Origin: Victivallales bacterium
GTDB taxonomy: Bacteria > Verrucomicrobiota > Lentisphaeria > Oligosphaerales > Oligosphaeraceae
Length of the DNA stretch: 51,063 bases
Assembly (NCBI GenBank): GCA_017431255.1
Contig: JAFRLI010000271.1
Coordinates: 1-51,063 of the forward strand
Direction of reading: 5' to 3'
Shown here: positions 9,309 to 51,063 of the stretch, piece after piece
Numbering within the stretch: the first letter of the stretch is position 1
Layout of the letters: each line of letters begins with the position of its first letter
Notes under the pieces: generated by a model
What the model saw: only the letters and a program-made list of their open reading frames with translations
What the model was told of the DNA's origin: nothing
Database searches by the model: none
Position numbers and translations under genes: made by a program

Positions 9309-9350
9309 TTTGATTTCTCCTTAGGTTATGCGCAGGAGGGACCCGCGCCG

Positions 9351-11696
9351 TTACAGATTGAGATCGATTTTGACATTGGGGAATGCGGTGAGTTGGAGGA
9401 GTATCCCCACCTCGAACGAATCATTGTCCCAACCGAATGCCAGCGCGGCTTTCCAGCAGTGGAGGTCGCGCCGGATTTCGTACATGTGTTCGGAAAGTTT
9501 TCCCTTTTCGAAGTCGTACTCAGCGGAGATGTTCAACTCCGTAAGGGAGTTCAGCGGAATCGTCACCTCGCCACGCACGATGTCTGCCGATTCAAAGTAT
9601 TTCTTCGTGTAGCCGTCCTCCCCCGTCAAATCCACCAGATTTCCACCGAGGCTGTATGTGCTCCGCGAGAGATGGTCGTTGCGGTAGATGTAGCGCAGAC
9701 GGAAGTTCGGCTCCTCTGTCTTGCCGAAACGAACGCCGAACTCCCCACGGTGCAGGTTCCCTTCGCCGACATCGTGGACCAGAGTTCCCCAGAGGCTCAA
9801 GTCATCCCGCAGCGTGAAGTCGAGACGATTTCCGAGGTTGCCGGCGCGTCGTCGATTCTCGGCGTCGCGGCAGGCGTGCAGGTCGAAATAGGCTTGCCAG
9901 CGCAGGAAAGTGCGGCTGGTGTTGTCCTGCCTGGCAAGGAGGCGCTGGTCCAAACCAAATCGGAGGAAGTGCTGTTTTTCGAGGCGGTCAATGTCGTCGA
10001 AGTAGTAGAGATGGTCGCGGTCATGAGAAGGGTTATGCATATAGGTGTAGTTCAGATAAGGTTCCACGACGTGGCGGATGGAGGTAAGTTGCAAGATTTC
10101 GTTCTTGCAGTCGAACCAGTCGCTGTAGAAAGCCCCGCGCCATTCGGCGCCCGTCTCGAAGGCGAATCGCGTCACATCGCCACCTTTGGAATCATACTCC
10201 TTGACGATGGTTTTGGAGCGTGTCTTCTCCGGATTGTCGAGGTCAATCATATCGGCGATGTCTTTTTGCGTGATGGGTTGCTTGCTGGAACGATTGTAGT
10301 AGGTCAGAGCAAATCCGGCGCGAGGCGTGAGGATGGACCAGTCCGACAACTCCGTCGGGACATACAGGAAGTGCTGGGTGTGAGCACGGAACGCCTCGTA
10401 GTCCGAATTGTCGCGGTAGAGTTCGGAATCGTACCAGATGTCATCGGGGAGCAGGTCTTTGCGGCTGCGATCAAAGTCACGCCATTTCATCGAATAGTAG
10501 CCGGCGCGGGTACTGCTCTGGTATTGAAGAGGCAACTGTGGGAAGAGTTCCGTACGTGCGACATCCAGGCGGAGTTCCGGGAGTGTCTGCGCGACGGTGT
10601 AGAAGTCATTGATGCGAGGGCGCAGGTCGATTCCAGCAGAGACCACTTCTCCTTCCAGCGCAAAATCCAAGAAGGAACGAGGCTGCTGCTGGCGGCGGTG
10701 GATTCGGCGGAACCAGTCCTCCAGCATGTCGATATCGCTCAGATAATCCAGATTGGCACGGAAAGTTGCACGTTCGAACGGTCCCCAGTCCCCGTCCCAG
10801 GTCTCACGGAAATACCCGTGGATGCGGAAGCGGTCGTCCGTAGACTTGAAACGGCGATTCCAGCCATGGGCCGTTTCGGGGGTATCCCAGTCGTGGAGGT
10901 AGTAAAGTGTGGAAGAGGCTTGACGCTGCTTGTCACGGCTTTCGTAGGCGGCGTCACTGCCGAGACCGATGCCGCGTTTCGTCATCAAATCGCCATAGAG
11001 ACTGATTTGTCCGTCACCGTTTTCAGTGTGTTTGGCAGTACGCCAAATGCGTCCCAGACGCAGGTAGAACCCACGTTTTCCCGAGTATCCTGGCTTGAAA
11101 ATGATGTTATCCATCCCCTGGAAGTCCCCCCAGAGATATGGGAAATAGAAGATGGGGACATTCCCCACATGCAAGGTCACGTGCTTTGCGGTGAAGGTCT
11201 TGTCGGGCTTGATGGTGATTTGCTTGGACTGGAGGCGGTAGTGCGGTTCTTTCTTGTCGCACGTGGTGACCCAGCCGCGCTGCACATTCGCGATTCCCTC
11301 CGCGTCATAGGCGGCGTCTTCGCCGCCGATATGCCAAATCTCGCCGTCCGCCCGATACGGTCCGAACTTCATCTCATGCGTCTTCATATTGCCAGAAATC
11401 GCAGGTGCCTCCCAACGGCCCGTCCCATCCGACAGTTCCGCCACCACATTCCCATTCGCCGCAAAGTCCAGAGTCTCCCGGTTCAGCGAAACCTTCTCCG
11501 CCGTCACCGTCAGAATCCCGTATTCTAGACGCACATTCCCCTGCGCCACGATGTCCCCCGCTCCATTCTGCGTCGCCACAATCTCGTCCGCAGACAGTTT
11601 CAGTTCCTCCGCTTGACGCAACGCCTCCAATGGGGAAGCACCAATGCACGCCAGGCAGCAAAACAACACGATGACGATATACCACTTTCGGATCAT
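9351..11696 (-). CDS. lptD: LPS-assembly outer-membrane protein LptD/OstA family
   Basis: 781 aa with a signal peptide. OstA-like N-terminal domain ('AQGNVRLEYGILTVTAEKVSLNRETLDFAANGNV'). 'VPIFYFPYLW' and a long beta-barrel-like C-terminal region are typical of LptD. Confidence 0.75.
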   Translation of the reverse strand: MIRKWYIVIVLFCCLACIGASPLEALRQAEELKLSADEIVATQNGAGDIVAQGNVRLEYGILTVTAEKVSLNRETLDFAANGNVVAELSDGTGRWEAPAISGNMKTHEMKFGPYRADGEIWHIGGEDAAYDAEGIANVQRGWVTTCDKKEPHYRLQSKQITIKPDKTFTAKHVTLHVGNVPIFYFPYLWGDFQGMDNIIFKPGYSGKRGFYLRLGRIWRTAKHTENGDGQISLYGDLMTKRGIGLGSDAAYESRDKQRQASSTLYYLHDWDTPETAHGWNRRFKSTDDRFRIHGYFRETWDGDWGPFERATFRANLDYLSDIDMLEDWFRRIHRRQQQPRSFLDFALEGEVVSAGIDLRPRINDFYTVAQTLPELRLDVARTELFPQLPLQYQSSTRAGYYSMKWRDFDRSRKDLLPDDIWYDSELYRDNSDYEAFRAHTQHFLYVPTELSDWSILTPRAGFALTYYNRSSKQPITQKDIADMIDLDNPEKTRSKTIVKEYDSKGGDVTRFAFETGAEWRGAFYSDWFDCKNEILQLTSIRHVVEPYLNYTYMHNPSHDRDHLYYFDDIDRLEKQHFLRFGLDQRLLARQDNTSRTFLRWQAYFDLHACRDAENRRRAGNLGNRLDFTLRDDLSLWGTLVHDVGEGNLHRGEFGVRFGKTEEPNFRLRYIYRNDHLSRSTYSLGGNLVDLTGEDGYTKKYFESADIVRGEVTIPLNSLTELNISAEYDFEKGKLSEHMYEIRRDLHCWKAALAFGWDNDSFEVGILLQLTAFPNVKIDLNL

Positions 11697-11811
11697 TTCC
11701 TAGACATCCTTGATTGAAGGAAAACACAATCTCTCAAGTATACTGTAACTCCTTTTCTCCATCTCGCAAGACAATCTACCGCAATTTCCCCTGCAATTCG
11801 CGGGCAGTTCT

Positions 11812-11848
11812 GGAATTACAAAGCCCCGGCGAGGTGGCTCGCCGGGGC
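11812..11848 (-). terminator. Rho-independent terminator after groEL
   Basis: Perfect 11-bp stem GCCCCGGCGAG / CTCGCCGGGGC (11823-11833 and 11838-11848) with a 4-nt loop. On the minus strand it is followed by TTTGTAATT. It lies 26 nt downstream of the groEL stop. Confidence 0.75.
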
Positions 11849-11873
11849 CTGTGTCAAAGAAAGGCTGGGAGGA

Positions 11874-13517
11874 TTACATCATGCCGCCCATTCCGCCCAT
11901 GCCGGGGTTCGGCGCGGGGGCTTCTTTCTTCTCTTCGGGAGCGTCGCAAATCATGCACTCAGTGGTGAGCAGCAGACCGGCGACGGAGGCGGCGTTCTGG
12001 AGGGCGCAGCGCTCGACCTTGGTCGGGTCGATGATACCAGCCTTAATCATATCGACGTATGCATCGTTGGCGGCATCGTAGCCTTCGTTGCCCTTGAGTT
12101 CATCCTTGACCTTCATCACGACGACGGCGCCTTCCTTGCCGGCGTTCTGCGCAATCATGCGGAGCGGCTCGTCAACCGCGCGGTCAATGATGTCAGCACC
12201 AGTGGCCTCGTCGCCCGTGAGTTTGAGTTTGCCCAGCGCGTTCTTGGCGGCTCGGATGAGTGCAACACCACCGCCGGGGACGATGCCTTCTTCGACGGCT
12301 GCGCGGGTCGCGTGCAGAGCGTCTTCGACGCGCATCTTCTTCTCCTTCATCTCCGCCTCGGTCGCGGCACCGACATGGATGACGGCAACGCCGCCCGCCA
12401 GTTTCGCCAGGCGTTCCTGGAGTTTCTCGCGGTCGTAGTCGCTGGTGGTCTCTTCAATCTGATGGCGAATCTGGTTGACGCGGCCCGCGATCTTGGAAGC
12501 GTCGCCCTGCCCTTCGACGATGGTGGTGTTGTCCTTGTCGATGGTGATGCGGCTGGCCTTACCGAGTTGGTCGATGGTGACGTTCTCCAGTTTGATGCCG
12601 AGGTCTTCGGTGATGCAGGTGCCGCCCGTGAGGACAGCGATGTCTTCCAGCATGGCCTTGCGGCGGTCGCCGAAGCCAGGGGCCTTGACGGCGCAGACGT
12701 TCAGCGTGCCACGCAGTTTGTTCACAACCAGCGTTGCCAGGGCTTCGCCATCCACGTCTTCCGCGATGATCAACAAGGGCTTGCCCTGTTTTGCAACGAC
12801 CTGGAGCAGCGGGAGCATATCCTGCAGGTTGCTGATCTTCTTCTCGTGGATGAGAATCAGCGCGTTCTCCAAAACGCATTCCATGGTCTCGGGGTTGGTG
12901 GTGAAATACGGGCTCAGATAACCCTTGTCAAACTGCATGCCTTCGACGACGTCGGAGGTCGTTTCGATGGTCTTGGATTCCTCGATGGTGATGGTGCCGT
13001 CTTTGCCGACCTTGTCCATCGCGTCGGCGATGATGCTGCCGATGCTCTGGTCGGAGTTGGCGGAGATGGTGGCCACCTGGGCAATCTTCTCGCGGCTGTC
13101 GGCAACGGAGACCGCCATCTTCTTCAGTTCGGCATTGATGGCCTCGACGGCGACGTCAATCCCGCGCTTGAGTGCCATCGGGTTGGCGCCGGCGGTAACG
13201 TTCTTCAGACCTTCGCGGAAGATGGCTTCGGCGAGGATGGTGGCGGTAGTGGTACCGTCGCCCGCATTGTCGTTGGTCTTGCTGGCAACTTCCTTCACCA
13301 TCTGCGCACCCATGTTCTCAAACGGATTCGCCAGTTCGACTTCCTTGGCGACCGTCACACCGTCCTTCGTCACGACGGGGGAACCGTATTTCTTGTCGAT
13401 GAGGACATTGCGGCCTTTCGGGCCCAGGGTGGTCTTGACAGCCTTGCTCAGCGCGGAAACACCGTTCAACAGTGCCTGACGACCCTTCACATCATACTGA
13501 ATCTGCTTTGCAGCCAT
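11874..13517 (-). CDS. groL: Chaperonin GroEL
   Basis: 547 aa. Contains '[19 protein letters not shown]', '[12 protein letters not shown]' and the C-terminal 'GMGGMGGMM'. Confidence 0.97.
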
Positions 13518-16255: not shown

Positions 16256-16472
16256 AAGAGGAAATTGCAAAACCCGCCTTCCAAGCAGTGGCCGATGTAC
16301 TCCTGGATGGCTTTGCCATCGTAAACAGCACATTTTGCCATTTTGGAGGTTGTTTTGCAATGCTCTCGAAATCAAGTGTCCAACGAACGGTGTCAGGAGG
16401 CCAAAACTCCATTCACGGTTCGGAGCCTTCTGCCTGGAAGTCGCAGGATTTCAATCGAAAAAAGGAGGTTCC

Positions 16473-39675: not shown

Positions 39676-40566
39676 ATGTCCGAAATCCGCGTCTTCAACC
39701 GCGAAACTCGCCAAATCGAAACCGAGAAGGTCCTCGGGGACTCTCTGATGCGCCTGGCCTACGAAACCCCGGCCAGAAGCGTCCTTTCCTGGCCTCTCTT
39801 CGGGACCTCTCTCTGTTCCCGCCTCCTCGGGAAATACGCCGATAGCACCCTCTCGCGTTCCCGCGTCGATTCCACCATCCGCAAGATGGAAATCCCCATG
39901 GAGGACTTTGAAGTTCCCGCAGGAGGTTTCCGCACCTTCAACGAGTTCTTCACTCGACGCGTCAAACCAGGCGCACGTCCCTTCCACGGCGACGGCCTCT
40001 GTTCTCCGGCAGATGGACGCCTCACCGTCTGGCAAACTCTCTCGCACGATACCTGCATTCCCGTCAAAGGAGCCTCCTTCACCGTTGCGGAACTTCTCGG
40101 TCCCCAAGGCAAGGACTACGCACGACGTTTCGAGGGCGGGTCCCTCTGCGTTTGCCGCCTCTGTCCGATCGATTATCATCGCTTCCACTTCCCCCTCGCC
40201 GGGACCCTTCTTGACGCCTGGCGCATTCGCGGGAAATACCATTCCGTGAACCCCATCGCGCTCGAACGAATGATAGACGTATTCACGAGCAACGTTCGGG
40301 AAGTGAAGATGCTCGAACTGGAAAAGGCGGGCCTTTGCGCGTTCATTCCCGTCGGAGCATTCGGGGTTGCCTCCATTGTGACCACCCACCAGGAGCGCGA
40401 GTTTCTGCGCGGAGACGAATGCGGCTATTTTTGCTTCGGCGGTTCCACCATCATCCTCGTCTTCGAACCCAACAAACTCCAATTTGCTCCCGATCTCATC
40501 CAGCACTCCGCCGCTGGCATGGAGTGCCTCGTCAAGGCCGGCGAACCCATCGCCTCGCTTCTTTAG
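39676..40566 (+). CDS. psd: Phosphatidylserine decarboxylase proenzyme
   Basis: Start ATG 39676, 2 nt after the cysS stop. 'DYHRFHFP' and the self-cleavage region 'FCFGGSTIILVF' (G-S-T) are PSD signatures. Confidence 0.88.
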   Translation: MSEIRVFNRETRQIETEKVLGDSLMRLAYETPARSVLSWPLFGTSLCSRLLGKYADSTLSRSRVDSTIRKMEIPMEDFEVPAGGFRTFNEFFTRRVKPGARPFHGDGLCSPADGRLTVWQTLSHDTCIPVKGASFTVAELLGPQGKDYARRFEGGSLCVCRLCPIDYHRFHFPLAGTLLDAWRIRGKYHSVNPIALERMIDVFTSNVREVKMLELEKAGLCAFIPVGAFGVASIVTTHQEREFLRGDECGYFCFGGSTIILVFEPNKLQFAPDLIQHSAAGMECLVKAGEPIASLL

Positions 40567-40654
40567 TGGTTAGTGGCTAGTGGTTAGTGGCTAGTGGCTA
40601 GTGGTTAGTGGCTAGTGGCTAGTGGTTAGTGGCTAGTGGTTAGTGGCTAGTGGT
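40564..40654. repeat. 7-bp microsatellite TAGTGGY x13, starting on the psd TAG stop codon
   Basis: Thirteen uninterrupted units cover 40564-40654 (91 bp). The Y pattern is T C T C C T C C T C T C T. The first TAG is the psd stop. Confidence 0.97.
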
Positions 40655-40911
40655 CGTGCCCCTAAGAGTTCCCTAAGCGTAGTGCCCCTAGGAGTTCCCT
40701 AGGCGTAGTGCCCCTAAGAGTTCCTTAAGCGTAGTGCCCCCAGGAGTTCTCTAGGCGTAGTGCCCCCAGGAGTTCCCTAGGCGTAGTGCCCCTAAGAGTT
40801 CCCTAAGCGTCGTGCCCCTAGGAGTTCCTTAAGCGTAGTGACCCTAGGAGTTCCCTAGGAGTCGTGCCCCTAGGAGTTCCCTAAGCGTCGTGCTCCTAAG
40901 CGTTGTGCCCC
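40655..40911. repeat. 26-bp minisatellite, about 9.8 units, contiguous with the 7-bp array
   Basis: Unit consensus GTGCCCCTARGAGTTCCCTARGCGTM, with unit starts at 40656, 40682, 40708, ... 40864. There is no spacer sequence between units. Each unit holds two CCTARG half-sites, including the palindromes CCTAGG and CTTAAG. Confidence 0.95.
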
Positions 40912-41014: not shown

Positions 41015-41818
41015 ATGAAACAACTGATTTTCGCACTCCTGACCATCGCCTGCATCGTTGCCATCACCGCCTGCTCCAAGACAGACGAAGGAGGAATGGC
41101 AAACGAAACCACCTTCACCGTCGGTTTTGACGCAGACTTCCCACCCTATGGCTACAAGAACCCGGAAACGGGAGAATACGTTGGCTTTGACCTCGACCTC
41201 GCCGCAGAGGTCTGCAAGCGCCAGGGCTGGAGACTCGTCAAAAAGCCCATCAACTGGGACGCCAAGGATATGGAACTCAATTCGGGGGCAATTTCCTGCA
41301 TCTGGAACGGGTTCACCATCAACGGTCGCGAAGACAAATACGAATGGACCGAACCCTATGTGGACAACTCGCAGGTCGTTCTCGTCCGCGTCAATTCCAC
41401 CATCAAAACCGTGACCGACCTCGCCGGAAAGACCGTCGCCGTCCAGACAGACACCCCCGTCCAGAAAGCACTCTCCGAAGGGGGAGACCAGGCGGAACTT
41501 GGCAAGACCTTCAAGAAACTGGTTGTCACCGCCACTTACAACAATGCTGTGATGGACCTGGAATCCGGCGCCGTCGACGCCGTCGCGTTGGACATCGGCG
41601 TTGCCGAGAAGAAGATAGCCGACACCAAGAACACCTTCCGCATTCTTGATGAGAGAGTCATGAGCGAAAAGTACGGTGTCGGCTTCAAACTCGGCAACAA
41701 AGAACTGCGTGACAAAGTCCAGAAGACCCTCAAGGAAATGGTCAAGGACGGCAAAGCCGCCGAGATTTCCGCGAAGTGGTTCAAGGGCGAAAATGTCATC
41801 ATCCTCAAGGCCGAATAA
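41015..41818 (+). CDS. Amino-acid ABC transporter substrate-binding lipoprotein (family 3 SBP)
   Basis: 267 aa with a lipobox 'VAITAC'. 'FTVGFDADFPPYGY' and 'DMELNSGAISCIWNGFT' are typical of polar amino-acid binding proteins. Confidence 0.88.
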   Translation: MKQLIFALLTIACIVAITACSKTDEGGMANETTFTVGFDADFPPYGYKNPETGEYVGFDLDLAAEVCKRQGWRLVKKPINWDAKDMELNSGAISCIWNGFTINGREDKYEWTEPYVDNSQVVLVRVNSTIKTVTDLAGKTVAVQTDTPVQKALSEGGDQAELGKTFKKLVVTATYNNAVMDLESGAVDAVALDIGVAEKKIADTKNTFRILDERVMSEKYGVGFKLGNKELRDKVQKTLKEMVKDGKAAEISAKWFKGENVIILKAE

Positions 41819-41834
41819 ACTCAGGTAGGGTACC

Positions 41835-42485
41835 ATGAACTACGGCAGAATGCTTCTGCAACTCCTGGAGGGACTATCATACTCCATCAGTATCTTTTGC
41901 TGGACGCTATTCTTTTCGCTGCCATTGGGGTTGCTGGTGGCATTGTGCCGTATGTCGAAGTTCACCGTGCTCAAACAACTGGCGCGTTTCTGCATCAGTG
42001 TACTGCGCGGAACACCGTTGATGTTGCAGTTGTTCCTGGTGTTCTACGGTCCCTACTATATCTTCAAGATGCCCTTGACGGACACCTACCGTTTCTTAGC
42101 GGTCATCATCGGCTTCTCCGTGAACTACGCGGCGTATTTTGCGGAGATATACCGGGCTGGAATCGAGGCGATTCCCCTGGGGCAGTACGAAGCCGCGCAA
42201 GTGCTGGGCTATTCCAGGACGCAAACCTTCTTCAAAATCATCGTGCCGCAGGTGGTGAAGCGCATTCTGCCGCCAGTCACCAACGAAGTCATCACACTGG
42301 TCAAGGACACATCGCTGGCCTTCACCCTCACCATTCCCGAGATGTTTTCCGTTGCAAGGCAGTGGTCCAGCGCCAGAACCACGATGATCCCCCTGATTGC
42401 CGCCGGCGTCTTCTACTACGTGTTCAACTTCCTCGTCGCCATGCTCATGGAACGATTTGAAAAGTACCTGAACTACTATCGTTAG
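41835..42485 (+). CDS. Amino-acid ABC transporter permease (HisM/GlnP type)
   Basis: 216 aa and about 5 TM helices. Contains 'RGTPLMLQLF' and the EAA-loop region 'EAAQVLGYSRTQTFFKIIVPQ'. Confidence 0.9.
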   Translation: MNYGRMLLQLLEGLSYSISIFCWTLFFSLPLGLLVALCRMSKFTVLKQLARFCISVLRGTPLMLQLFLVFYGPYYIFKMPLTDTYRFLAVIIGFSVNYAAYFAEIYRAGIEAIPLGQYEAAQVLGYSRTQTFFKIIVPQVVKRILPPVTNEVITLVKDTSLAFTLTIPEMFSVARQWSSARTTMIPLIAAGVFYYVFNFLVAMLMERFEKYLNYYR

Positions 42486-42494
42486 GGGGAAGCC

Positions 42495-43283
42495 ATGACT
42501 CAACTGAATCTCAACAAAGCGCCCGTCCTCCACATCGAGCATCTCTCCAAGAGTTTCGATAACCTCACCGTCCTCAAGGACATCTCCCTGGATGTCCACC
42601 AGGGCGAGGTCGTCTCCATCATCGGCCCTTCCGGCTCCGGCAAGTCCACCCTCCTCCGTTGCTGCACCCTCCTCGAAACCATGACCTCGGGAATGCTTGC
42701 GTTCGGAGACACCATCGTCTGCCAAAGTGCCGCACGCGACACCAAGCAATACGCCTCCCCGGAAACCCTTCGGCTCGTCCGACAGAAGTTCGGACTCGTC
42801 TTCCAGAACTTCAACCTCTTCCCGCACTGGTCCGTCATGAAAAACATCATCGACGCGCCCATCAGCGTCCAAAAACGCGACAAGAACGAGGTCATCCATG
42901 ACGCAGAACTCCTCCTCCAGAAAATGGGACTCGCCGACCGCGGGGACTACTACCCATTCCAACTCTCTGGCGGACAGCAGCAGCGCGTCTCCATCGCACG
43001 GGCTCTCATCAACAATCCTGAAATCCTCTTTTTTGACGAGCCGACCTCCGCCCTCGACCCCGAACTCACCGGAGAAATCCTCAAGGTCATCCGCGACCTC
43101 GCCGCCGAGCATATGACCATGGTCATCGTCACCCACGAAATCGAGTTCGCGCGCAACGTTTCCGACCGCGTCATCTTCATGGCGGAGGGCGTCATCGTCG
43201 AGCAGGGTCCTGCCAACGACGTCATCCTCCACCCCACCCAGGAACGCACGCGCACATTCCTCGCAAACATGCGCAACAAATGA
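42495..43283 (+). CDS. Amino-acid ABC transporter ATP-binding protein
   Basis: Walker A 'GPSGSGKST', signature 'LSGGQQQRV' and Walker B 'ILFFDEPTSALD'. Confidence 0.93.
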   Translation: MTQLNLNKAPVLHIEHLSKSFDNLTVLKDISLDVHQGEVVSIIGPSGSGKSTLLRCCTLLETMTSGMLAFGDTIVCQSAARDTKQYASPETLRLVRQKFGLVFQNFNLFPHWSVMKNIIDAPISVQKRDKNEVIHDAELLLQKMGLADRGDYYPFQLSGGQQQRVSIARALINNPEILFFDEPTSALDPELTGEILKVIRDLAAEHMTMVIVTHEIEFARNVSDRVIFMAEGVIVEQGPANDVILHPTQERTRTFLANMRNK

Positions 43284-43966
43284 ACCGCAAGTTATTGACA
43301 TTGGAAGAGGCCGCAGCCTCGTTGAAAATGGAGCCAGGAGAACTGCGCTCCCTCGCTGTCCAGGGCGAACTTCCCTCCACCTCCCGTGGAGACGCTCTGC
43401 TCTTTTTCCAGGAGGATTTGGACTTCTGGTACTCCCAGCGTGTCATCACGGACACCAAACGCCATGAAATGCGCCGTGAAAAAACATCTTTGGACGAACT
43501 CTGCCCCGATGGATGCATCGCCGACGCCCTGCCTGGAACCTCCCGATCCTCCATCGTCAAAGCACTCGTCTCCCTGGCGGAAAACAGCGGATTCCTCTAC
43601 GACCCCGCCGACCTCGAAGCCGAAATCCTCCGCCGCGAGGAAATGGATACCACCAACATCGGAATGGGAGTCGCCATCCCACACACCCTCGTCCGCGATG
43701 AAGGATACTTCTCCGATTCTTTCCTCTGCATTGCACGCCTTGCCCGTCCCGCTTTCTTCAACTCCGCACCCGACGGCAAGCCCACTTCCCTCCTGATTCT
43801 CTCCTGCCTTCTAGACAGTGAACTCCACCTCGCCGTTCTCGCGCGAATCGCCGCCCTCTGCCGCGATACCGATTTCATCCAGCGAATCCACGAGGCTGAA
43901 GACCCCGAGCAAATGCGAGAGGTGCTCCGCCAATGCGAAGAACTTCTGGACAAAAAGCGACGCTAG
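43280..43966 (+). CDS. HTH (excisionase/MerR-like) plus PTS EIIA type-2 (PtsN-like) fusion protein
   Basis: 228 aa. The N-terminal 'LLTLEEAAASLKMEPGELRSLAVQGELP' is HTH-like. The C-terminal EIIA-2 fold carries the 'GMGVAIPH' phospho-His motif. The ATG overlaps the ABC ATPase TGA (ATGA at 43280-43283). Confidence 0.8.
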   Translation: MNRKLLTLEEAAASLKMEPGELRSLAVQGELPSTSRGDALLFFQEDLDFWYSQRVITDTKRHEMRREKTSLDELCPDGCIADALPGTSRSSIVKALVSLAENSGFLYDPADLEAEILRREEMDTTNIGMGVAIPHTLVRDEGYFSDSFLCIARLARPAFFNSAPDGKPTSLLILSCLLDSELHLAVLARIAALCRDTDFIQRIHEAEDPEQMREVLRQCEELLDKKRR

Positions 43967-43984
43967 TGATAGCCGGGGGAACTT

Positions 43985-44476
43985 GTGGACGTATTTTCTT
44001 CTGACAACCAGCACCATGAGGCGATGATGCGCCTCGCCATCGAGGAGGCGCTTGCCGCCGCCGAAGCGGGCGAGGTTCCCGTCGGTGCCGTCATTGCCTG
44101 CGGGGGCGAAGTGGTTGCGCGGGCCCACAACTGCGTTGAGAGCACGTTGCAAGGCACGGCACATGCGGAACTGCTTGCCATTCAGGAGGCTTCGCGCCGA
44201 CTGGGAATGTGGCGGCTGGACGGATGCACGCTCTATGTCACGAAGGAACCCTGTGCGATGTGCGCCGGGGCAATGGTCAACTGCCGCGTCCCTGAACTTT
44301 TTTTCGGGTGTCCAGACCCAAAGACTGGCGCGGCGGGAGGCTTTCTGGACGTCACCGCCATGCCGGACGGCTTCCACACCGTCCGCACCACGGGCGGGCT
44401 TCTGGCGAGCGAATGCCTCGCCATTCTGCAAGATTTTTTCCGGAAACGAAGACAACAAGTCAAACAACAGCCATGA
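43985..44476 (+). CDS. tadA: tRNA adenosine(34) deaminase TadA
   Basis: CDA motifs 'HAELLAIQEA' and 'PCAMCAGAM'. The start is uncertain: GTG 43985 or ATG 44024 ('MMRLAIEEA'). Confidence 0.88.
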   Translation: MDVFSSDNQHHEAMMRLAIEEALAAAEAGEVPVGAVIACGGEVVARAHNCVESTLQGTAHAELLAIQEASRRLGMWRLDGCTLYVTKEPCAMCAGAMVNCRVPELFFGCPDPKTGAAGGFLDVTAMPDGFHTVRTTGGLLASECLAILQDFFRKRRQQVKQQP

Positions 44477-44489
44477 GGAGGAAACAAAA

Positions 44490-45482
44490 ATGGCATTTGA
44501 AAAAAGGGAACTGAAGAACGAACTGACCTGGTCGGTTTCTCGCGCCAATCTCTTCCAGGAGTGCCCGCGCGCCTACTACTACAACTATTACGGCTCCTGG
44601 GGCGGCTGGGACTTCAACGCTCCCGCCGAGGCACGCCTGCTCTACACCCTCAAGAACATCCAGACGATGATTCTCTGGGCCGGCGGAATTGTCCACGAAC
44701 TCATCAAGGGCGCACTCGAAAAAGCACGCGAAACAGGAGTCCTTCCCGACGTCCCTACCCTCCAGGAAGCCGCCAGCCAACTTATGAACTCCCAGTGGCT
44801 TGACTGCATCCACGGAAGGTGGCGCGAACGCCCGAAATCCACCAACCTCGATGAACTCTACTACGGCAACGGCAAGCAGTTCGGCACCCTCACCAGGCTC
44901 CCACGCTCCGCAACCGACCCCATCCGTGAACGCGTCCAGGAATGCCTCGCCAGTTTCGTTCATGCCCCCATCGTCCAGGAAATCCTCGCCACTCCCGCGC
45001 AGCAATGGGTCACCATCGATACCCTTGACACGTTCGAACTCGAAGGCATCAAAATCTACTGCGCCATCGACTTCGCATTCTACGACAAGGAGGGTTTCCT
45101 CAACATCATCGACTGGAAAACGGGCAACGAATACTCCGATACCCTACAGCACCAACTCGCCTGCTATGCGCTCTACGCCATGCAGAAATGGAACGTCCCC
45201 TTCGATAAAATTCGCCTTCAGGGAGTCATCCTCCGCGACGGAGGACGCACCTCCTTCCACAACATCACCCAAGGCATGCTCGACATGACCCGCAAGAAAA
45301 TCCTCATCAGCCACAAGGCAATGAAGGATATCCTTGCCGACCCGGACAACAATCTCGCCCAAGAGCAGGACTTCGAGCCGCGCCCCGCTGAACGGCATTG
45401 CCTCCGCTGCAACTTCCGACAGGTCTGCCCGCTCCTCGCCGATAAACTCGACGACCTGGTCATGCCCCCTTCCGAGGAGTAA
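44490..45482 (+). CDS. Cas4/AddB-like PD-(D/E)XK nuclease with a 4-Cys (putative Fe-S) motif
   Basis: The true start is ATG 44490 ('MAFEKRELKNELTWSVS'), with GAGGAGG 8 nt upstream. N-terminal Cys in 'FQECPRAYYYNYY'. Nuclease core 'YCAIDFAF...LNIIDWKTG' (D...DxK) followed by 'QHQLACYALY' (QxxxY). C-terminal 'CLRCNFRQVC' (CX2CX5C). Confidence 0.75.
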   Translation: MAFEKRELKNELTWSVSRANLFQECPRAYYYNYYGSWGGWDFNAPAEARLLYTLKNIQTMILWAGGIVHELIKGALEKARETGVLPDVPTLQEAASQLMNSQWLDCIHGRWRERPKSTNLDELYYGNGKQFGTLTRLPRSATDPIRERVQECLASFVHAPIVQEILATPAQQWVTIDTLDTFELEGIKIYCAIDFAFYDKEGFLNIIDWKTGNEYSDTLQHQLACYALYAMQKWNVPFDKIRLQGVILRDGGRTSFHNITQGMLDMTRKKILISHKAMKDILADPDNNLAQEQDFEPRPAERHCLRCNFRQVCPLLADKLDDLVMPPSEE

Positions 45483-45494
45483 CGGAGGTCCCCC

Positions 45495-48400
45495 GTGCTC
45501 CCCAGCGAACGCTTCGCCAACTGCTTCCCGCAGGAAATCCGGCACGGTGGAGAGGCTCTCGTCCCAAATGCCACACGCCTCTGGGGCGGCGATGAATCCA
45601 TCTCCCTTGAGTTTTCCGACGGCACCAACGCCTCCTTCCAACTCGAAAACAATCTCCTCGTGCCACACTGTTCCTGCGAAACCGCACTCGCAGGAAATCC
45701 CTGCACGCACCTTTGGTGCGCACTCCTACTCGCAGACAAGTTCCAGGACCTCGCCAAGGCTCTCAAACGCTCCGTTCCACGACGCCTCCACTTCCCCACC
45801 AACAACACCGAGGATTCCCCACGGCTCGAATACGATACGCCACGACGACGCAAAAAGCCCGAAGAGGAACTCAGTCCCGAAGCCGCCGAAGCGTTGAACT
45901 ATCTTGCAGCGCTCGCCCATGGAGTCCGAGTCCCCGAAACGCGTCCCGAGGTCGATTCCTCCTTAACCCAGGAAATCCTCTACGTTGTGCGTCCAGACAA
46001 GCAGCGTCCCGACCAGCGCACCTGCCCCATCGAAACCTGGTGGCGCACGCCTGCCGCTCCTGGTCAGAAACCTTCCGCATGCCGCCCATTCACCTGGGAG
46101 GCAGGGACCCCGCTACCCACGAAAATGGACGCCACCCTGCTGGGACTCCTCACGCCTTTCCGTGCAGCCCCGCCCGAACACCCCAACCTCCACCACGTTC
46201 CCGCCTCTTGCGAACAACTCTTCGAGGCTCTCATCGGCTTCCCGAATCTCCGCTGGGCTGACGCACGCGAGGGCACCATCCAAATGCACCCGCTCGCACT
46301 CTCGTTCGGGACGGCTGCAGATTTGCACATTGCCTGCCGCCCGCTGGTGGAATTGGATTTGTACGAGTTCACTTGCCAACTGGCACATACGGGGAAAGAC
46401 ATCCCCTTCTCAGAGGTGCGAATGCAGTGCCAGGCACCTGGACGCCCTGCCCCGCCCGCCTGGCTCCTCTGCCGAAACCAACTCCTTCGCGCCAATCTTC
46501 GACGCGCCGAGGAACTCTCCCAGCAATTCCTACTCCGTGGAACCCTCCGCCTCGACTACGCAACCTCCAACGCACTCTCCGCCTCACTCGCCACTCAAAC
46601 CGACCTCGACACCGATTCCTTCCCCGAAGCCCTGCGGCACTACCGCGAAGACGCGCCCCCCATCGGCCACCTCTACGTCCGCACCGCCCAATTCAAATAC
46701 CAGGGCCAGGAACAGCTCCACGCCGAACTCTCCTTCCAGTACGGAAACATTACCTGCGAAGAAAACGACCCCAACGACCGCATCCTCGACGGACGCGCAC
46801 TCATCCAGCGAGACCCCGAAGCCGAAGAGCATCTCCGGGATTCCCTCCGCAAACTCGGCTTCCGATACAACTCCCGCTCCTGGGCCGAGGAACTCGGCTG
46901 GAAACTCCTCCCCTCCCTCCTCGACAATGCGGTCATGGAACTCATCGGCCAGGGCTGGGAAGTCCGCGCCGAAGGGAAAACCTACCGCAAGCCCCAAACC
47001 AAACAGGCCGTCGTCTCCTCAGGAACCGATTGGTTCGACCTCAAATCCGGAATCTCCTTCGATGGAATGGAGGTCCCCCTCCCCACGTTGCTCGCCGCCG
47101 CCAAACAAGGACAGCACGCCGTCCGACTCGACGACGGGACCTACGGCATCCTCCCCCGCGAATGGCTCGAAAACTTCACCGTCCTCACCGAACTTGGGGA
47201 AGTCACTAGCGACCGCATCCGCCTCCGCGTCGAGCAGGCCGCGCTCGTCAACGCCATCCTCAACGACCAACTTGCCCATGCGGGCGGAACGCTTCAAGAG
47301 CGTCTGGAGGAGTTTGAACGCCTCGGCACCCCGCAGCCCGCCGATCCGCCGCATGGATTCCAGGCGACCTTGCGCCCCTACCAGCGTGTCGGTCTCGGCT
47401 GGCTTCTCGCCATGCAGAAGGCGGGCATGGGGGCATGTCTCGCCGATGACAGGGGCCTCGGCAAGACCATCCAGGTCCTCGCCGTCCTCGCCGGGCGCGC
47501 CCTTGAACCCAACCATACCCCCTCCCTCATCGTCATGCCGCGCTCCCTCCTCTTCAACTGGCAGGCGGAAGCGCAAAAGTTCGCACCCTGGCTCCGCGTC
47601 CGTATCCATCTCGGAAATGCACGCGACCTCTCCCCACGCACCCTCGCCTCCTGCGACCTCCTCCTCACTACCTACGGAACCCTTCGCAACGACGCCACGC
47701 GGCTCGCCAATGTCGATTTCGATTACTGCGTCCTGGATGAATCCCAGGCCATCAAAAACCCCGACAGCGCCACCGCGCGCGCCGCACGCTGCATCCGCGC
47801 ACGGCACCGCATTGCCATGACGGGAACCCCCATCGAAAACCACCTCGGCGAACTCTTCAGCCAACTCGATTTTCTCAATCCGGCCCTCTTCGGGAATCGC
47901 CGCCTCCCCCTCGCACCCTCTCCCAACTCCAATCGCGAAAACTCCGCCATTGAGCGAGTGCGCAAGGGTGTCCGTCCATTTCTGTTGCGTCGCACCAAGC
48001 AAGATGTCGCCAAGGATCTTCCTCCGAAGACGGAGCAGATTCTCTGGTGTGAAATGCCACCTGAGGATCTCGCTGAATACAACGACCTCCTGCACTACTA
48101 CCAGAAGGAACTCTCCGAAGCCGAATCCACAGGAATGCAGACCCTCGCCGCACTCACACGACTGCGCCAGGCCGCCTGTCACCCTGGACTCCTCAAGGAA
48201 AACCGCTTCCACGACTCCTCCGCAAAACTCGAAATCCTCCTCCAAAACCTCGACACCATTCTCGAGGCAGGAAACAAGGCACTCGTCTTCTCTCAATTCA
48301 CCTCCTTCCTCAAAATCATCCGCGCACGCCTCCAGGACGCCGGATACAACCCCTGCTACCTCGACGGCGAAACCAAGGACCGCGCCGCCGAAGTCGACGC

Positions 48401-48725
48401 CTTCCAAAACGATCCGGCGCGCCAGGTCTTCCTCATCTCCCTCAAGGCGGGCGGTGTCGGCCTCAACCTCACGGCAGCCTCCTACGTTTTCCTAATGGAC
48501 CCATGGTGGAATCCCGCAGCCGAGGCCCAGGCCATCGACCGCGCCTATCGCATCGGTCAGAAAAACCCCGTATTCGCGTACCGTATCATTACACGTTCCA
48601 CCATCGAGGAAAAGGTCTACAACCTCCAAAACGCCAAACGAAAACTCGCCTCCGCCATCATCGACCACGATACCGACTCCCCTGCCCCACTCTCCCGCAA
48701 AGACCTCCAGGCACTCCTCTTCTAG
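45495..48725 (+). CDS. SWIM zinc-finger SNF2-family helicase (YwqA-like architecture)
   Basis: 1076 aa. GTG start with GGAGG 6 nt upstream, 12 nt after the nuclease stop. SWIM motif 'CSCETALAGNPCTH' (CxCx9CxH). SNF2 motifs 'LADDRGLGKT', 'VLDESQAIKN', 'MTGTPIEN' and 'SLKAGGVGLNLTAASYVFLMDPWWNPAAEAQAIDRAYRIGQ'. Confidence 0.9.
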   Translation: MLPSERFANCFPQEIRHGGEALVPNATRLWGGDESISLEFSDGTNASFQLENNLLVPHCSCETALAGNPCTHLWCALLLADKFQDLAKALKRSVPRRLHFPTNNTEDSPRLEYDTPRRRKKPEEELSPEAAEALNYLAALAHGVRVPETRPEVDSSLTQEILYVVRPDKQRPDQRTCPIETWWRTPAAPGQKPSACRPFTWEAGTPLPTKMDATLLGLLTPFRAAPPEHPNLHHVPASCEQLFEALIGFPNLRWADAREGTIQMHPLALSFGTAADLHIACRPLVELDLYEFTCQLAHTGKDIPFSEVRMQCQAPGRPAPPAWLLCRNQLLRANLRRAEELSQQFLLRGTLRLDYATSNALSASLATQTDLDTDSFPEALRHYREDAPPIGHLYVRTAQFKYQGQEQLHAELSFQYGNITCEENDPNDRILDGRALIQRDPEAEEHLRDSLRKLGFRYNSRSWAEELGWKLLPSLLDNAVMELIGQGWEVRAEGKTYRKPQTKQAVVSSGTDWFDLKSGISFDGMEVPLPTLLAAAKQGQHAVRLDDGTYGILPREWLENFTVLTELGEVTSDRIRLRVEQAALVNAILNDQLAHAGGTLQERLEEFERLGTPQPADPPHGFQATLRPYQRVGLGWLLAMQKAGMGACLADDRGLGKTIQVLAVLAGRALEPNHTPSLIVMPRSLLFNWQAEAQKFAPWLRVRIHLGNARDLSPRTLASCDLLLTTYGTLRNDATRLANVDFDYCVLDESQAIKNPDSATARAARCIRARHRIAMTGTPIENHLGELFSQLDFLNPALFGNRRLPLAPSPNSNRENSAIERVRKGVRPFLLRRTKQDVAKDLPPKTEQILWCEMPPEDLAEYNDLLHYYQKELSEAESTGMQTLAALTRLRQAACHPGLLKENRFHDSSAKLEILLQNLDTILEAGNKALVFSQFTSFLKIIRARLQDAGYNPCYLDGETKDRAAEVDAFQNDPARQVFLISLKAGGVGLNLTAASYVFLMDPWWNPAAEAQAIDRAYRIGQKNPVFAYRIITRSTIEEKVYNLQNAKRKLASAIIDHDTDSPAPLSRKDLQALLF

Positions 48726-48851
48726 ATGTGCTAGAGGGGCTAGATGTGCTAGATGGGCTAGATGGGCTAGATGTGCTAGATGGGCTAGATGTGCTAGATG
48801 GGCTAGATGGGCTAGATGTGCTAGATGTGCTAGATGTGCTAGATGGGCTAG
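48722..48851. repeat. 9-bp tandem array CTAGATGKG x14 (plus a partial unit), starting on the SNF2 TAG stop codon
   Basis: Units start at 48722, 48731, ... 48839 with no indels. Variants are CTAGATGTG and CTAGATGGG, plus one CTAGAGGGG. The TAG of every unit is in frame with the SNF2 stop at 48723-48725. Confidence 0.97.
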
Positions 48852-48984
48852 CAGCACCAGGTTTTGCAGGGCCGCGCTCCGAGCGGCCCAAGAGTGTGGC
48901 AAACGCGAGGAAAGGCAGGGTGCCTGACCATGGGGCTCGCATACACGCAGCCCTGCAAAACATAGTGCACAGGAGCCAGGGCAT
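48852..48984. other. Unique 133-bp core between the inverted arrays, carrying nested inverted repeats
   Basis: 12-bp perfect inverted repeat GTTTTGCAGGGC (48861-48872) / GCCCTGCAAAAC (48950-48961), 77 nt apart. Inner hairpin GGGCCGC-gctccga-GCGGCCC (48869-48889). Confidence 0.85.
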
Positions 48985-49206
48985 CTAGGGCTTCTAGCCC
49001 ATCTAGCCCCTCTAGCCCCTCTAGCCCCTCTAGCCCATCTAGCCCATCTAGCCCATCTAGCCCATCTAGCCCATCTAGCCCCTCTAGCCCCTCTAGCCCA
49101 TCTAGCCCATCTAGCCCCTCTAGCCCATCTAGCCCCTCTAGCCCATCTAGCCCCTCTAGCCCATCTAGCCCCTCTAGCCCATCTAGCCCATCTAGCCCCT
49201 CTAGCC
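48985..49206. repeat. 9-bp tandem array CTAGCCCMT x~24.7; the reverse complement of the left array, ending on the recombinase TAG stop codon
   Basis: Units start at 48985, 48994, ... 49192 and there is a partial unit at 49201-49206. CCCATCTAG is the reverse complement of the left-array unit CTAGATGGG. The recombinase stop (reverse complement of 49201-49203) lies in the last unit, and every unit gives an in-frame TAG on the minus strand. Confidence 0.97.
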
Positions 49207-50916
49207 TTTCCAGAAGTCCATGCTGGCCAAGTGGGCGAGGAGTGTTGCGTGTTCCGTACTTGAGGGGAAGAGATAGTTTACCTGAATGAGGCAGTCCTGA
49301 ATCGTGGTAGGCGGTTGTTTTCCACGCCGGGGCAGAATCCGAAAGGAAAACTTTGGAAAGTTCCTCGTACTCCCGAGAAGGACCCGTGGAAGGCTAAGGA
49401 TTCCATAATGGGTATGGATATCCAGATGGTCCTCAAAACAATGGATTTTGGAAACCGCGCGATGCAGCAATGTACGAAAACTCTCTTCCGAGAGTTGGTT
49501 GTCCAAAATGCGTTGCAACGTTTTCAAGGCATTGGCGTTGTCTTGTGCCTGGGAAGCCTGATGCGTCAGCAGGACGATTTCATTCAGCAGGGTCGTTTTG
49601 CGTTCCTGCAGATGCTGAAAAGCCGCATAGTATGCGATGCGAGAGGTTTCGTTTTCCACAAAAGAATCCACCAAATCGCCGATTTTTCCCTCTATTTCTT
49701 GCAATTCAGACTTCGTTTCCTCCAAATGAGCCTGAATCCGTTCACTGCTTTGACACTTTACACTGTCCAGGAAAAGCGCCAATGGAAGGACAGGAAGAAC
49801 AGCCTCACGCAACCCCGTAAACTCCTGCGATGACCTTACAAGCGTAATATTCACGCGCGACTTGCCGCATTGTTTGTCATGTCGCACATTCACCCCTTGC
49901 AGACAACTGTAGCAGATTTTCCCAGATTCCCGCAGCACAGACATGCGGCTTCCACAATTCCCACAATACAACAATCCTGAAAAAGGATGCTGGGCACGGT
50001 GTCTCGCATTGTCCCCCCCATGCGAGGCATTCACGATTTCATTCGCACGGTGCCACTCCTCAAACGTCACGATTTCCTTGCCTTCCATCTGCTTGGCAGG
50101 AACCAGAACCCCATGCGAATCATACATATACCCACAATAGAACGGATTCGCAATGATATGCCGCCAACTGGTGTCGTAGAAACACTTGCCAGAATGCCGT
50201 CCACGAAATCGCGTGTTCATCTCCCGCAACAAATCCGCATATTTGGCGCGATGAAGCACCTGTTCATACACAAAGCGAATCACCTCCACCGCTTCCGGAA
50301 TCACTTCAATTCTCTTCTCCTTGCCTCCCAAATACCGAATGCCGAACATCTTCGGTTGCGTACAATAGTATCCCGAATCCCGCAAACGCGCCAACGCTTT
50401 CTTGGACTTCTCGCGCGTTATCTTGATCTGATTGTCATTCACTTGAGACTGAATGCTCGATACCAGTGCGTCCGTAAACTTCTGGAAATCAATCGTCCCC
50501 TCCTTGAGACTCACCAATTCCACGCGACTGGCAAGCAGGCGATGGTTCACATATGCCTGCAAAAAACTGTTCAGGACTGGACGGTACAATCGCGTCAAAT
50601 CATACACGAGAAGGCAGTCCATCTGCGAAAGCATCTCCAGAACCTGCCCCAAGCCAGCACGATACCGCTTGCCTGTGGTATGGGAACGCAACCACTCCGC
50701 TAGCGCTTCATCCATCTCCGCAAGTGACTCCGCGCCCGTCGGATACAAGCGACCTGGGGTATTTGCATCTGCATATACCCCAATCACATCCCATCCATGG
50801 GATTCCGCGTAAACACGACACGCTTCTTCCTGCATCCCCAGCGATTCACTATCTTCTTCTTTTCCACTGGACTGACGACAGTAAATCACCGCTCGCTTTA
50901 AAACCCGGCTCGACAT
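49201..50916 (-). CDS. Large serine recombinase (resolvase/invertase N-domain, recombinase domain and zinc ribbon)
   Basis: The start is taken as ATG 50916 ('MSSRVLKRAVIYCRQSSGKEEDS...', catalytic-Ser region). Contains 'GYYCTQPKMFGIRY' and the zinc ribbon 'CGNCGSRM...CYSC', followed by a coiled-coil tail. Spot counts of 60-nt lines give about 47-48% G+C here against about 68% in one spot-counted 60-nt line of the adjacent SNF2 gene. Confidence 0.85.
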   Translation of the reverse strand: MSSRVLKRAVIYCRQSSGKEEDSESLGMQEEACRVYAESHGWDVIGVYADANTPGRLYPTGAESLAEMDEALAEWLRSHTTGKRYRAGLGQVLEMLSQMDCLLVYDLTRLYRPVLNSFLQAYVNHRLLASRVELVSLKEGTIDFQKFTDALVSSIQSQVNDNQIKITREKSKKALARLRDSGYYCTQPKMFGIRYLGGKEKRIEVIPEAVEVIRFVYEQVLHRAKYADLLREMNTRFRGRHSGKCFYDTSWRHIIANPFYCGYMYDSHGVLVPAKQMEGKEIVTFEEWHRANEIVNASHGGDNARHRAQHPFSGLLYCGNCGSRMSVLRESGKICYSCLQGVNVRHDKQCGKSRVNITLVRSSQEFTGLREAVLPVLPLALFLDSVKCQSSERIQAHLEETKSELQEIEGKIGDLVDSFVENETSRIAYYAAFQHLQERKTTLLNEIVLLTHQASQAQDNANALKTLQRILDNQLSEESFRTLLHRAVSKIHCFEDHLDIHTHYGILSLPRVLLGSTRNFPKFSFRILPRRGKQPPTTIQDCLIQVNYLFPSSTEHATLLAHLASMDFWKG

Positions 50917-51063
50917 ATAGATTCCCCTTGAGTGGCATAAGTTAAGTCCCAAGATGATACAACACACAATGTATCACTTGGTTCCGCGTTTTGCCACTCC
51001 CCCACCCATTTTTTATTCTGTTTCCACAGATTTGGGGAATGGTGCCAGCGCAAACACTAGATA

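Follow-up and report, generated by a model that had tools for sequence, protein, structure and literature searches.

Does a gene for a Cas4-like nuclease, standing directly in front of a gene for an SNF2-type ATPase, make up a system that defends its host against foreign DNA, or do the two genes belong to the ordinary chromosomal equipment of that host? The question is raised by contig JAFRLI010000271.1, assigned to an uncultured Victivallales-like member of the Lentisphaerota, the whole of which (51,063 nucleotides [nt]) was analyzed here and is called the window. A first-pass annotation made from its sequence had described the pair as a defense candidate in a defense-island neighborhood, with a housekeeping module for repair or fork remodeling, resembling YwqA, as the alternative. 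Our results fit this alternative better. We hold, with moderate confidence, that the nuclease and SNF2 genes are vertically inherited chromosomal genome-maintenance genes, possibly acting as a loose translocase-nuclease repair pair, and not defense genes. The defense reading is unsupported because the nuclease occupies a syntenic core position and both genes are flanked by housekeeping genes, in a window that is core chromosome and with the NCBIfam cut-offs for defense families missed.

The evidence for this comes mainly from about 110 related loci compared in all, whose flanking genes were sampled and not surveyed exhaustively. Starting from the nuclease, the EIIA, TadA, nuclease, and SNF2 proteins of the window were searched with tblastn against 85 loci with flanks of up to 10 kb, and the linkage results were placed on a neighbor-joining tree of the nucleases. 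In most Lentisphaerota loci tadA lies directly upstream of the nuclease gene, often overlapping it, with EIIA often before tadA, and it is to tadA, more than to SNF2, that the nuclease is most consistently tied. SNF2 was found directly downstream of the nuclease in 8 of about 74 loci (the window, L005, L042, L043, L016, L017, L020, and L024) and 3.6 to 7.2 kb downstream in three (L007, from Oligosphaera ethanolica, L086, and L087), in which unrelated genes, including metabolic ones and ones on the opposite strand, are inserted between the two. It was absent from 63 of the roughly 74, judged on 1 to 10 kb of downstream sequence. Despite the inserted genes, the Oligosphaera-type loci keep the order EIIA-tadA-nuclease ... 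SNF2-thioredoxin, thioredoxin being the conserved gene downstream of SNF2 in L086 and L087. The loci with adjacent nuclease and SNF2 genes fall in three separate clades of the nuclease tree, with nucleases about 47 to 55% identical to that of the window, and the genes of these orthologous pairs are separated by 11 to 15 nt or overlap by 4 nt. SNF2 identity rises and falls with nuclease identity across the loci, which fits vertical descent, and the distribution as a whole fits an ancient EIIA-tadA-nuclease-SNF2 order that has been eroded repeatedly. Conservation of the pair, the check that the first-pass annotation had recommended, is thus seen for the nuclease, syntenic with EIIA and tadA in most Lentisphaerota loci, and only in a minority of them for SNF2 at its side.

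The tadA-nuclease linkage spans positions 43985 to 45482 of the window and recurs, for example, at positions 9496 to 10924 of L001. One nuclease clade has rph upstream, part of it also having dinB downstream, and another clade has an epimerase gene downstream. Both upstream partners, tadA (tRNA adenosine deaminase) and rph (RNase PH), code for tRNA-processing enzymes. The dinB gene (Pfam IMS) lies 3 to 45 nt past the nuclease in a gut-associated clade (L003, positions 10001 to 12479; L047; L051; L052). It codes for a Y-family translesion polymerase, and its adjacency is a hint, independent of SNF2, at a DNA-damage role. Outside the Lentisphaerota, the neighbors of the nuclease are M16 peptidases, IlvD, ABC_ATPase, and metallo-beta-lactamase; a conserved helicase partner was considered there and rejected, as the big adjacent open reading frames (ORFs) in loci of the Anaeromyxobacter type code for M16 peptidases.

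For the view from SNF2, metagenome contigs were scanned with the family-specific SNF2_assoc region, which gave 23 ortholog loci. The nuclease gene lies directly upstream in 7 of these and was absent in at least 10 of the 23, having at least 2 kb of upstream sequence. Unpaired SNF2 genes are flanked by genes for SecDF, DUF1846, acetolactate synthase, M20 peptidase, Rho, thiolase, and glycan-degrading enzymes, and paired loci by those for GyrA, RlmN, a VIT/LysM protein, and a GFO oxidoreductase. Recurrent defense or mobile genes, the mark of a defense island, were not seen in the flanks sampled from the roughly 110 loci, which carry housekeeping or metabolic genes instead. Isolated exceptions occur in L001, where a PhdYeFM/PIN toxin-antitoxin pair precedes the nuclease by 2 kb, and in L003, where Apyc1-like, NmeDI_C, and AAA_14 genes follow it at a distance of a few kilobases; the only mobile feature of the window is an integrase gene at the end of the contig. 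A syntenic core position without ties to defense or mobile genes, which the first-pass annotation had named as the observation that would speak against its proposal, is therefore largely what we find for the nuclease and, wherever it was examined, for SNF2.

The nuclease itself is a stand-alone member of the Cas4 family (pfam12705), and its ATG is preceded by GAGGAGG. The PF12705 profile (PDDEXK_1) matches residues 13 to 314 over its complete length (positions 1 to 247 of 247; E=2.5e-17, 64.1 bits against a cut-off of 22), and the motifs follow one another as C...D...DxK...QxxxY...CX2CX5C, the Cas4/AddB/Dna2 arrangement with an N-terminal cysteine that had been recognized in the first-pass annotation. 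In an alignment of 21 orthologs with 40 to 55% identity, eight positions never vary (C25, D194, D208, K210, Q222, Y226, C304, and C313), and conservation of C307 reaches 90% or more. By homology to ACE1, AdnA/AddB, Dna2, and EXO5, the protein probably holds a [4Fe-4S] cluster through C25, C304, C307, and C313, and it would cut single-stranded DNA (ssDNA) ends or flaps with a metal site formed by D194, D208, and K210. The models for this prediction are ACE1 (PMC12094033), Cas4, Dna2, and EXO5, which carry an iron-sulfur (Fe-S) cluster and cut ssDNA. ACE1 is also the nearest solved structure (9IAB/9IAC, template modeling [TM] scores of 0.57/0.69) to the AlphaFold2 model of the nuclease, which has a predicted local distance difference test (pLDDT) score of 91.7, followed by the AdnA nuclease domain, Dna2 (5EAX), EXO5 (7LW9), the putative exonuclease 3L0A, Cas4 SSO0001, and AddAB; in a sequence-profile search ACE1 again ranks first (E=8.6e-9). 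The family contains 3434 representatives at E<=0.001 and 889 at E<=1e-30. Among the best 150, nearly all are stand-alone proteins of about 300 to 330 amino acids, and no fusion to SNF2 or another motor is apparent. In contigs from one genome per species, the nuclease occurs at 338 loci, in Lentisphaerota, Rokubacteria/Methylomirabilota, and Anaeromyxobacter.

The product of the downstream gene contains the complete SNF2 ATPase core ascribed to it earlier, as SNF2-rel_dom, Helicase_C, and SNF2_assoc all match and the Walker A (GxGKT), DExQ, and motif VI sequences are all invariant in the orthologs. The SNF2_assoc (PF08455) match, N-terminal to the ATPase, is partial (profile positions 151 to 343 of 373) and barely over the cut-off. 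As to the SWIM zinc finger that had been read at the N terminus as CxCx9CxH, the zinc motif exists, is invariant in 16 orthologs, and lies in a beta-beta-alpha element of the AlphaFold2 model with pLDDT of >85, but its spacing is x8, and neither the N-terminal 122 nor the N-terminal 622 residues of the window protein gave a match to Pfam SWIM (PF04434) at E<=10. PF04434 is recorded for some of the orthologs (P0122, P0126, P0130, and P0133). Residues 102 to 149 are a disordered linker. The ATPase core is nearest to SsoRad54, the Sulfolobus SWI2/SNF2 core 1Z63 (E=1e-139), and Foldseek matched the AlphaFold2 model (pLDDT 81.3) to Mot1, ZorD, and 1Z63. By homology to SsoRad54 and other Snf2 ATPases, the protein is predicted to be a duplex DNA translocase that has no unwinding activity. 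The best NCBIfam models (SCO1167/SCO6262 and pilus_reg_Snf2) are missed so widely that we consider it to represent a separate Lentisphaerota subfamily; literature searches on bacterial and mycobacterial SWIM-SNF2 proteins and on PF08455 found nothing useful. Near Walker A, the window protein reads ADDRGLGKT, while all but one of the aligned orthologs read ADDMGLGKT; the lineage-specific M-to-R change falls on residue 653 (positions 47451 to 47453), beside the P-loop.

Both ORFs, and the 12-nt gap with its GGAGG, are found in the sequence where the first-pass annotation had put them. Its term "two-gene operon" describes correctly that the genes are adjacent and understates their setting, as they are the last two of seven co-directional genes (positions 41015 to 48725) with spacings of -4 to 18 nt, in the order glnHPQ-EIIA-tadA-nuclease-SNF2 (Table 1). 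Close spacing is common throughout this seven-gene stretch and so says little on a shared function of nuclease and SNF2. In the reading that we favor, the two genes would be transcribed as the tail of this mixed housekeeping string. The SNF2 protein would be an enzyme of the YwqA/SSO1653 type that uses its N-terminal SWIM-like zinc module and its SNF2_assoc region as targeting domains; its motor would act on stalled forks, R-loops, or protein-DNA blocks, remodeling them and so exposing a single-stranded flap for the nuclease to trim. Where the genes are adjacent, the most likely joint role would be that of a loose translocase-nuclease repair pair, by analogy to the operons of UvrD with Cas4-like nucleases, to Dna2, and to EXO5 with BLM.

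Table 1. Coordinates of the nuclease-SNF2 gene string, of protein motifs and domains, and of the repeat arrays and integrase gene that follow (window positions; aa, amino acids; TRF, Tandem Repeats Finder)
Feature	Positions	Strand	Basis or remark
Amino-acid ATP-binding cassette (ABC) binding protein	41015-41818	+	ORF
ABC permease	41835-42485	+	ORF
ABC ATPase	42495-43283	+	ORF
Helix-turn-helix phosphotransferase system (HTH-PTS) EIIA	43280-43966	+	ORF, Pfam
TadA-type deaminase	43985-44476	+	ORF, Pfam
Stand-alone Cas4-family (pfam12705) PD-(D/E)XK nuclease, 330 aa	44490-45482	+	ORF, PF12705, ortholog motifs, AlphaFold2 model
Nuclease C25	44562-44564	+	
Nuclease D194	45069-45071	+	
Nuclease D208-W-K210	45111-45119	+	
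Nuclease Q222..Y226	45153-45167	+	
Nuclease C304-x2-C307-x5-C313	45399-45428	+	
Spacer between nuclease and SNF2, 12 nt	45483-45494	+	Read in sequence; GGAGG at 45484-45488, 6 nt ahead of GTG
SWIM-like/SNF2_assoc/SNF2 ATPase, 1076 aa, GTG start	45495-48725	+	Pfam, ortholog motifs, AlphaFold2 model
SNF2 protein CxCx8CxH	45669-45710	+	C59, C61, C70, H72
SNF2_assoc domain	46689-47270	+	2.2e-7, 30.6 bits vs cut-off of 27
SNF2-rel_dom	47379-48191	+	E=5.6e-58
Helicase_C	48225-48557	+	E=6.3e-19
Left array, 14.4 copies of 9-nt CTAGATGKG	48722-48851	.	TRF score 204
Spacer between arrays, 130 nt, with its own long hairpin (GGTTTTGCAGGGC...GCCCTGCAAAAC)	48852-48981	.	Fold z=-2.3 (+), -4.8 (-)
Right array, 25 copies of CMCATCTAG, the reverse complement of the left unit	48982-49206	.	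TRF score 359
Large serine recombinase, phage-type integrase	49201-50967	-	Resolvase, Recombinase, Zn_ribbon_recom; PHROG 95 integrase 9e-55

Solo genes of the Cas4 family have been found to evolve mainly vertically (Hudaiberdiev et al. 2017, PMC5704561), and the window nuclease resembles the solo pfam12705 nucleases in standing alone, in its four cysteines and D..DxK..QxxxY residues, and in an inheritance that looks mainly vertical. The same survey describes fusions and operons of pfam12705 nucleases with UvrD, some of them in contexts that do not indicate defense, and a link to YprA helicases. The motor of those helicase-linked nucleases is a superfamily 1 (SF1) UvrD or a YprA/DUF1998 helicase, whereas here it is an SF2 duplex translocase of the Snf2 type, and the linkage is facultative. 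SNF2 is not mentioned in PMC5704561, and neither is its pairing with a Cas4-family nuclease, in agreement with the first-pass annotation, which did not recognize the pair as a described system. As the theme of a Cas4-like nuclease with a motor has already been described, SNF2 as the motor is a new combination and not a new kind of system. ACE1, an ssDNA endonuclease, shares with the window nuclease the cysteines of the Fe-S "iron staple" and the D-DxK site; the window protein differs in being some 50 to 60 residues longer and about 14% identical in structural alignment, in coming from a different phylum, and in lying beside tadA with no Argonaute gene nearby. Dna2, and EXO5 acting with BLM, have the same Cas4-like Fe-S nuclease fold and a division of labor in which the motor exposes ssDNA and the nuclease trims it, but their motors are SF1 or RecQ enzymes and not Snf2, so that the likeness is one of design and not of orthology. 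With the YwqA type and SsoRad54, the SNF2 protein shares SNF2_assoc, SNF2-rel_dom, and Helicase_C domains and an N-terminal CxCxnCxH; Bacillus subtilis YwqA presumably carries PF08455, and the likeness to it is one of domain make-up, not of direct sequence comparison.

How far could the pair still be a two-gene system against phages or plasmids, in which the SNF2 protein senses or tracks foreign DNA and the Cas4-like nuclease acts as effector, much as in helicase-nuclease systems of the ZorD, Hma, or Hachiman type? We consider this improbable, even if several matches point toward it. In PADLOC, the models of DpdE, ZorD, and DrmD match with strong E-values, but they cover residues 503 to 1075 of the SNF2 protein only (508 to 1056 for the ZorD models), essentially the generic ATPase core, and the NCBIfam models are far from their cut-offs (242.5 of 1500 bits for the ZorD equivalog, 77.6 of 950 and 42.7 of 610 for DrmD, and 44.2 of 500 for DpdE). 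The partner genes of these systems (zorA/B/C; drmA/B/C and the methylase; the dpd genes) are all absent from the window. ZorD apo (8QY7) ranks second in Foldseek for the full-length SNF2 model (994 columns, TM scores of 0.36 to 0.43), and the protein is a relative of ZorD-type bacterial Snf2 enzymes that lies outside the ZorD family. ZorD (type I Zorya) and HmaA (Hma) are, like the window motor, Snf2 ATPases that work with a nuclease activity, but there the nuclease is in the same polypeptide and ZorABC or HmaBC is needed, whereas here it is a separate Cas4-family protein without such partner genes. A fusion of SNF2 to a PDDEXK nickase does defend against T4 (PMC11232893). On the side of the nuclease, the best PADLOC match is a Cas4-like nuclease associated with prokaryotic Argonaute (pAgo; 1.2e-20), and ACE1, its closest solved structure, boosts pAgo interference (PMC12094033); no pAgo was seen among the sampled neighbors of the window or of related loci, and no operon of the ACE1/ACE2 type was found there. 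The PADLOC Cas4 models match weakly (1e-5 or worse), and the gene adjoins tadA and SNF2, with no CRISPR-like array found in the window, so that it does not qualify as a CRISPR-associated Cas4. The phage-type integrase lies 476 nt downstream of SNF2, in a region of foreign composition that orthologous loci lack. Conserved core-genome synteny with housekeeping flanks across the roughly 110 loci, and a distribution and divergence that look vertical, argue further against defense.

Genome maintenance is therefore the reading that we retain, and some observations weigh against it, above all against its cooperative part. The nearest characterized relatives of the nuclease (ACE1) and one structural neighbor of the motor (ZorD) act in defense. 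Most loci do not have the two genes side by side (adjacency is seen at 8 of about 74 nuclease loci and 7 of 23 SNF2 loci), from which it follows that cooperation of nuclease and SNF2 is not obligatory and may not exist. Moreover, the linkage of tadA to the nuclease is at least as tight as that of the nuclease to SNF2, though no functional link to tadA is expected, which makes close spacing weak evidence of a shared function. The main rival reading, which we think less probable than not by some distance, takes the two for housekeeping genes without a functional tie, left adjacent from an ancestral EIIA-tadA-nuclease-SNF2 string. The SNF2 protein would then act on transcription complexes and release or recycle RNA polymerase, as proposed for RapA and the poorly characterized YwqA, and the nuclease would serve on its own, either in the processing of DNA ends or in a different nucleic-acid pathway. 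This would account for the absence of the other gene within up to 10 kb at most loci of either one, for the opposite-strand genes between the two in L007, L086, and L087, for a downstream partner of the nuclease that differs by clade (epimerase, dinB, or SNF2), for tadA and EIIA adjacency conserved as much or more, and for the lack of nuclease-SNF2 fusions among the best 150 family representatives; B. subtilis YwqA is also listed among the Swi2/Snf2 translocases that interact with RNA polymerase (PMC7385302). However, the match to the RapA/HepA equivalog model is negligible (24.2 bits against a cut-off of 576), the pairing of a nuclease with a motor is well known for pfam12705 proteins (PMC5704561), and adjacency recurs in three clades about 50% diverged in amino acid sequence, with stop and start codons overlapping or nearly so. 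Where the genes are translationally coupled, a closer association can be imagined, in which the nuclease and the SWIM-SNF2 protein form a physical two-subunit machine, an Snf2-driven counterpart of AddAB, AdnAB, or Dna2. Such a machine, which we regard as rather unlikely, would work on DNA ends or stalled forks, with the breakdown of invading linear DNA as a possible second task.

Cooperation of the two proteins in genome maintenance would extend the design of a Cas4-like Fe-S nuclease plus motor from SF1/YprA helicases to an Snf2 duplex translocase, and would give a first functional handle on about 900 diverged clusters of stand-alone nucleases and on the Snf2 enzymes with SWIM and SNF2_assoc regions. 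A two-subunit machine, if true, would be the first complex of Snf2 and a Cas4-family nuclease described in bacteria. Without such cooperation, the locus would be nothing more than ordinary core chromosome, and it would chiefly teach caution, as PADLOC-type hits to ZorD, DpdE, or Cas4-like models do not add up to a defense system, even with an integrase close by.

Core chromosome makes up the remainder of the window, which is the entire contig, with genes for DnaK, FtsH, malic enzyme, CysS, an SPFH protein, phosphatidylserine decarboxylase (PSD), and glycosidases. Named homologs belong to metagenome-assembled genomes of Victivallales, Oligosphaeraceae, and Lentisphaeria, with a top identity of 55%. 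An ORF of 1355 aa at positions 7461 to 11528 had no Pfam match at E<=1e-4. Rfam gave no match at gathering thresholds in the whole window, ARAGORN found neither tRNA nor transfer-messenger RNA, and a scan of the window for promoters and terminators stayed at background level.

Downstream of SNF2, the first-pass annotation had seen an extraordinary repeat structure and, facing the pair, a large serine recombinase in AT-richer DNA, and both observations hold. The recombinase gene lies on the minus strand in a region with a guanine-plus-cytosine (GC) content of 0.51, against 0.58 to 0.64 in the nuclease-SNF2 pair, and its GC content at third codon positions is 0.57, compared with 0.73 in the pair. 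Past the start of the recombinase gene, 96 nt of contig remain, and the mobile element to which the gene belongs, with its attachment sites, lies outside the window. As the region is compositionally foreign and orthologous loci carry other genes at this position, the integrase was most plausibly inserted later, at a break in synteny, and does not belong to a shared island. With no tRNA gene in the window, there is no tRNA-type attachment (att) site for it there, and a scan of IMG/VR found no relatives of the recombinase.

The repeat structure consists of two inverted arrays of 9-nt units, with arms of 130 to 139 nt that are 88 to 92% complementary, and the whole region is predicted to fold with -312.6 kcal/mol (z=-17.8). 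Both convergent genes end in the outermost units, with the SNF2 stop codon TAG (positions 48723 to 48725) inside the first unit of the left array and that of the recombinase (positions 49201 to 49203) inside the last unit of the right one. The 130-nt spacer between the arrays matches nothing in Rfam and occurs a single time in the window. It may code for a small RNA, or it may serve the convergent SNF2 and integrase genes on its two sides as a bidirectional terminator or insulator. We considered whether the 9-nt arrays belong specifically to the SNF2 operon or to the integrase and rejected this, given that short 7- and 9-nt arrays are common across Lentisphaerota loci and occur elsewhere in the window, where further stop-rich ones lie at positions 40564 to 40898. 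The density of short tandem arrays, whose period is 7 or 9 in most cases, is 5.3 per 100 kb for Lentisphaerota loci versus 0.4 per 100 kb for loci of other phyla, and we found no description of tandem intergenic repeats in Lentisphaerae in the searchable literature. Many of the intergenic arrays of the lineage contain CTAG, which gives stop codons on both strands. In L024, EIIA-tadA is enclosed by two 9-nt arrays in inverted orientation (positions 2709 to 2758 and 4237 to 4278), and L102, from a different genome, has about 18 copies of the same CCCCTCTAG unit as the window directly upstream of its SNF2 ortholog (positions 9037 to 9193). Further arrays lie in L042 (positions 16357 to 16470) and in L090 to L092, and related ones are present on three IMG/VR contigs.

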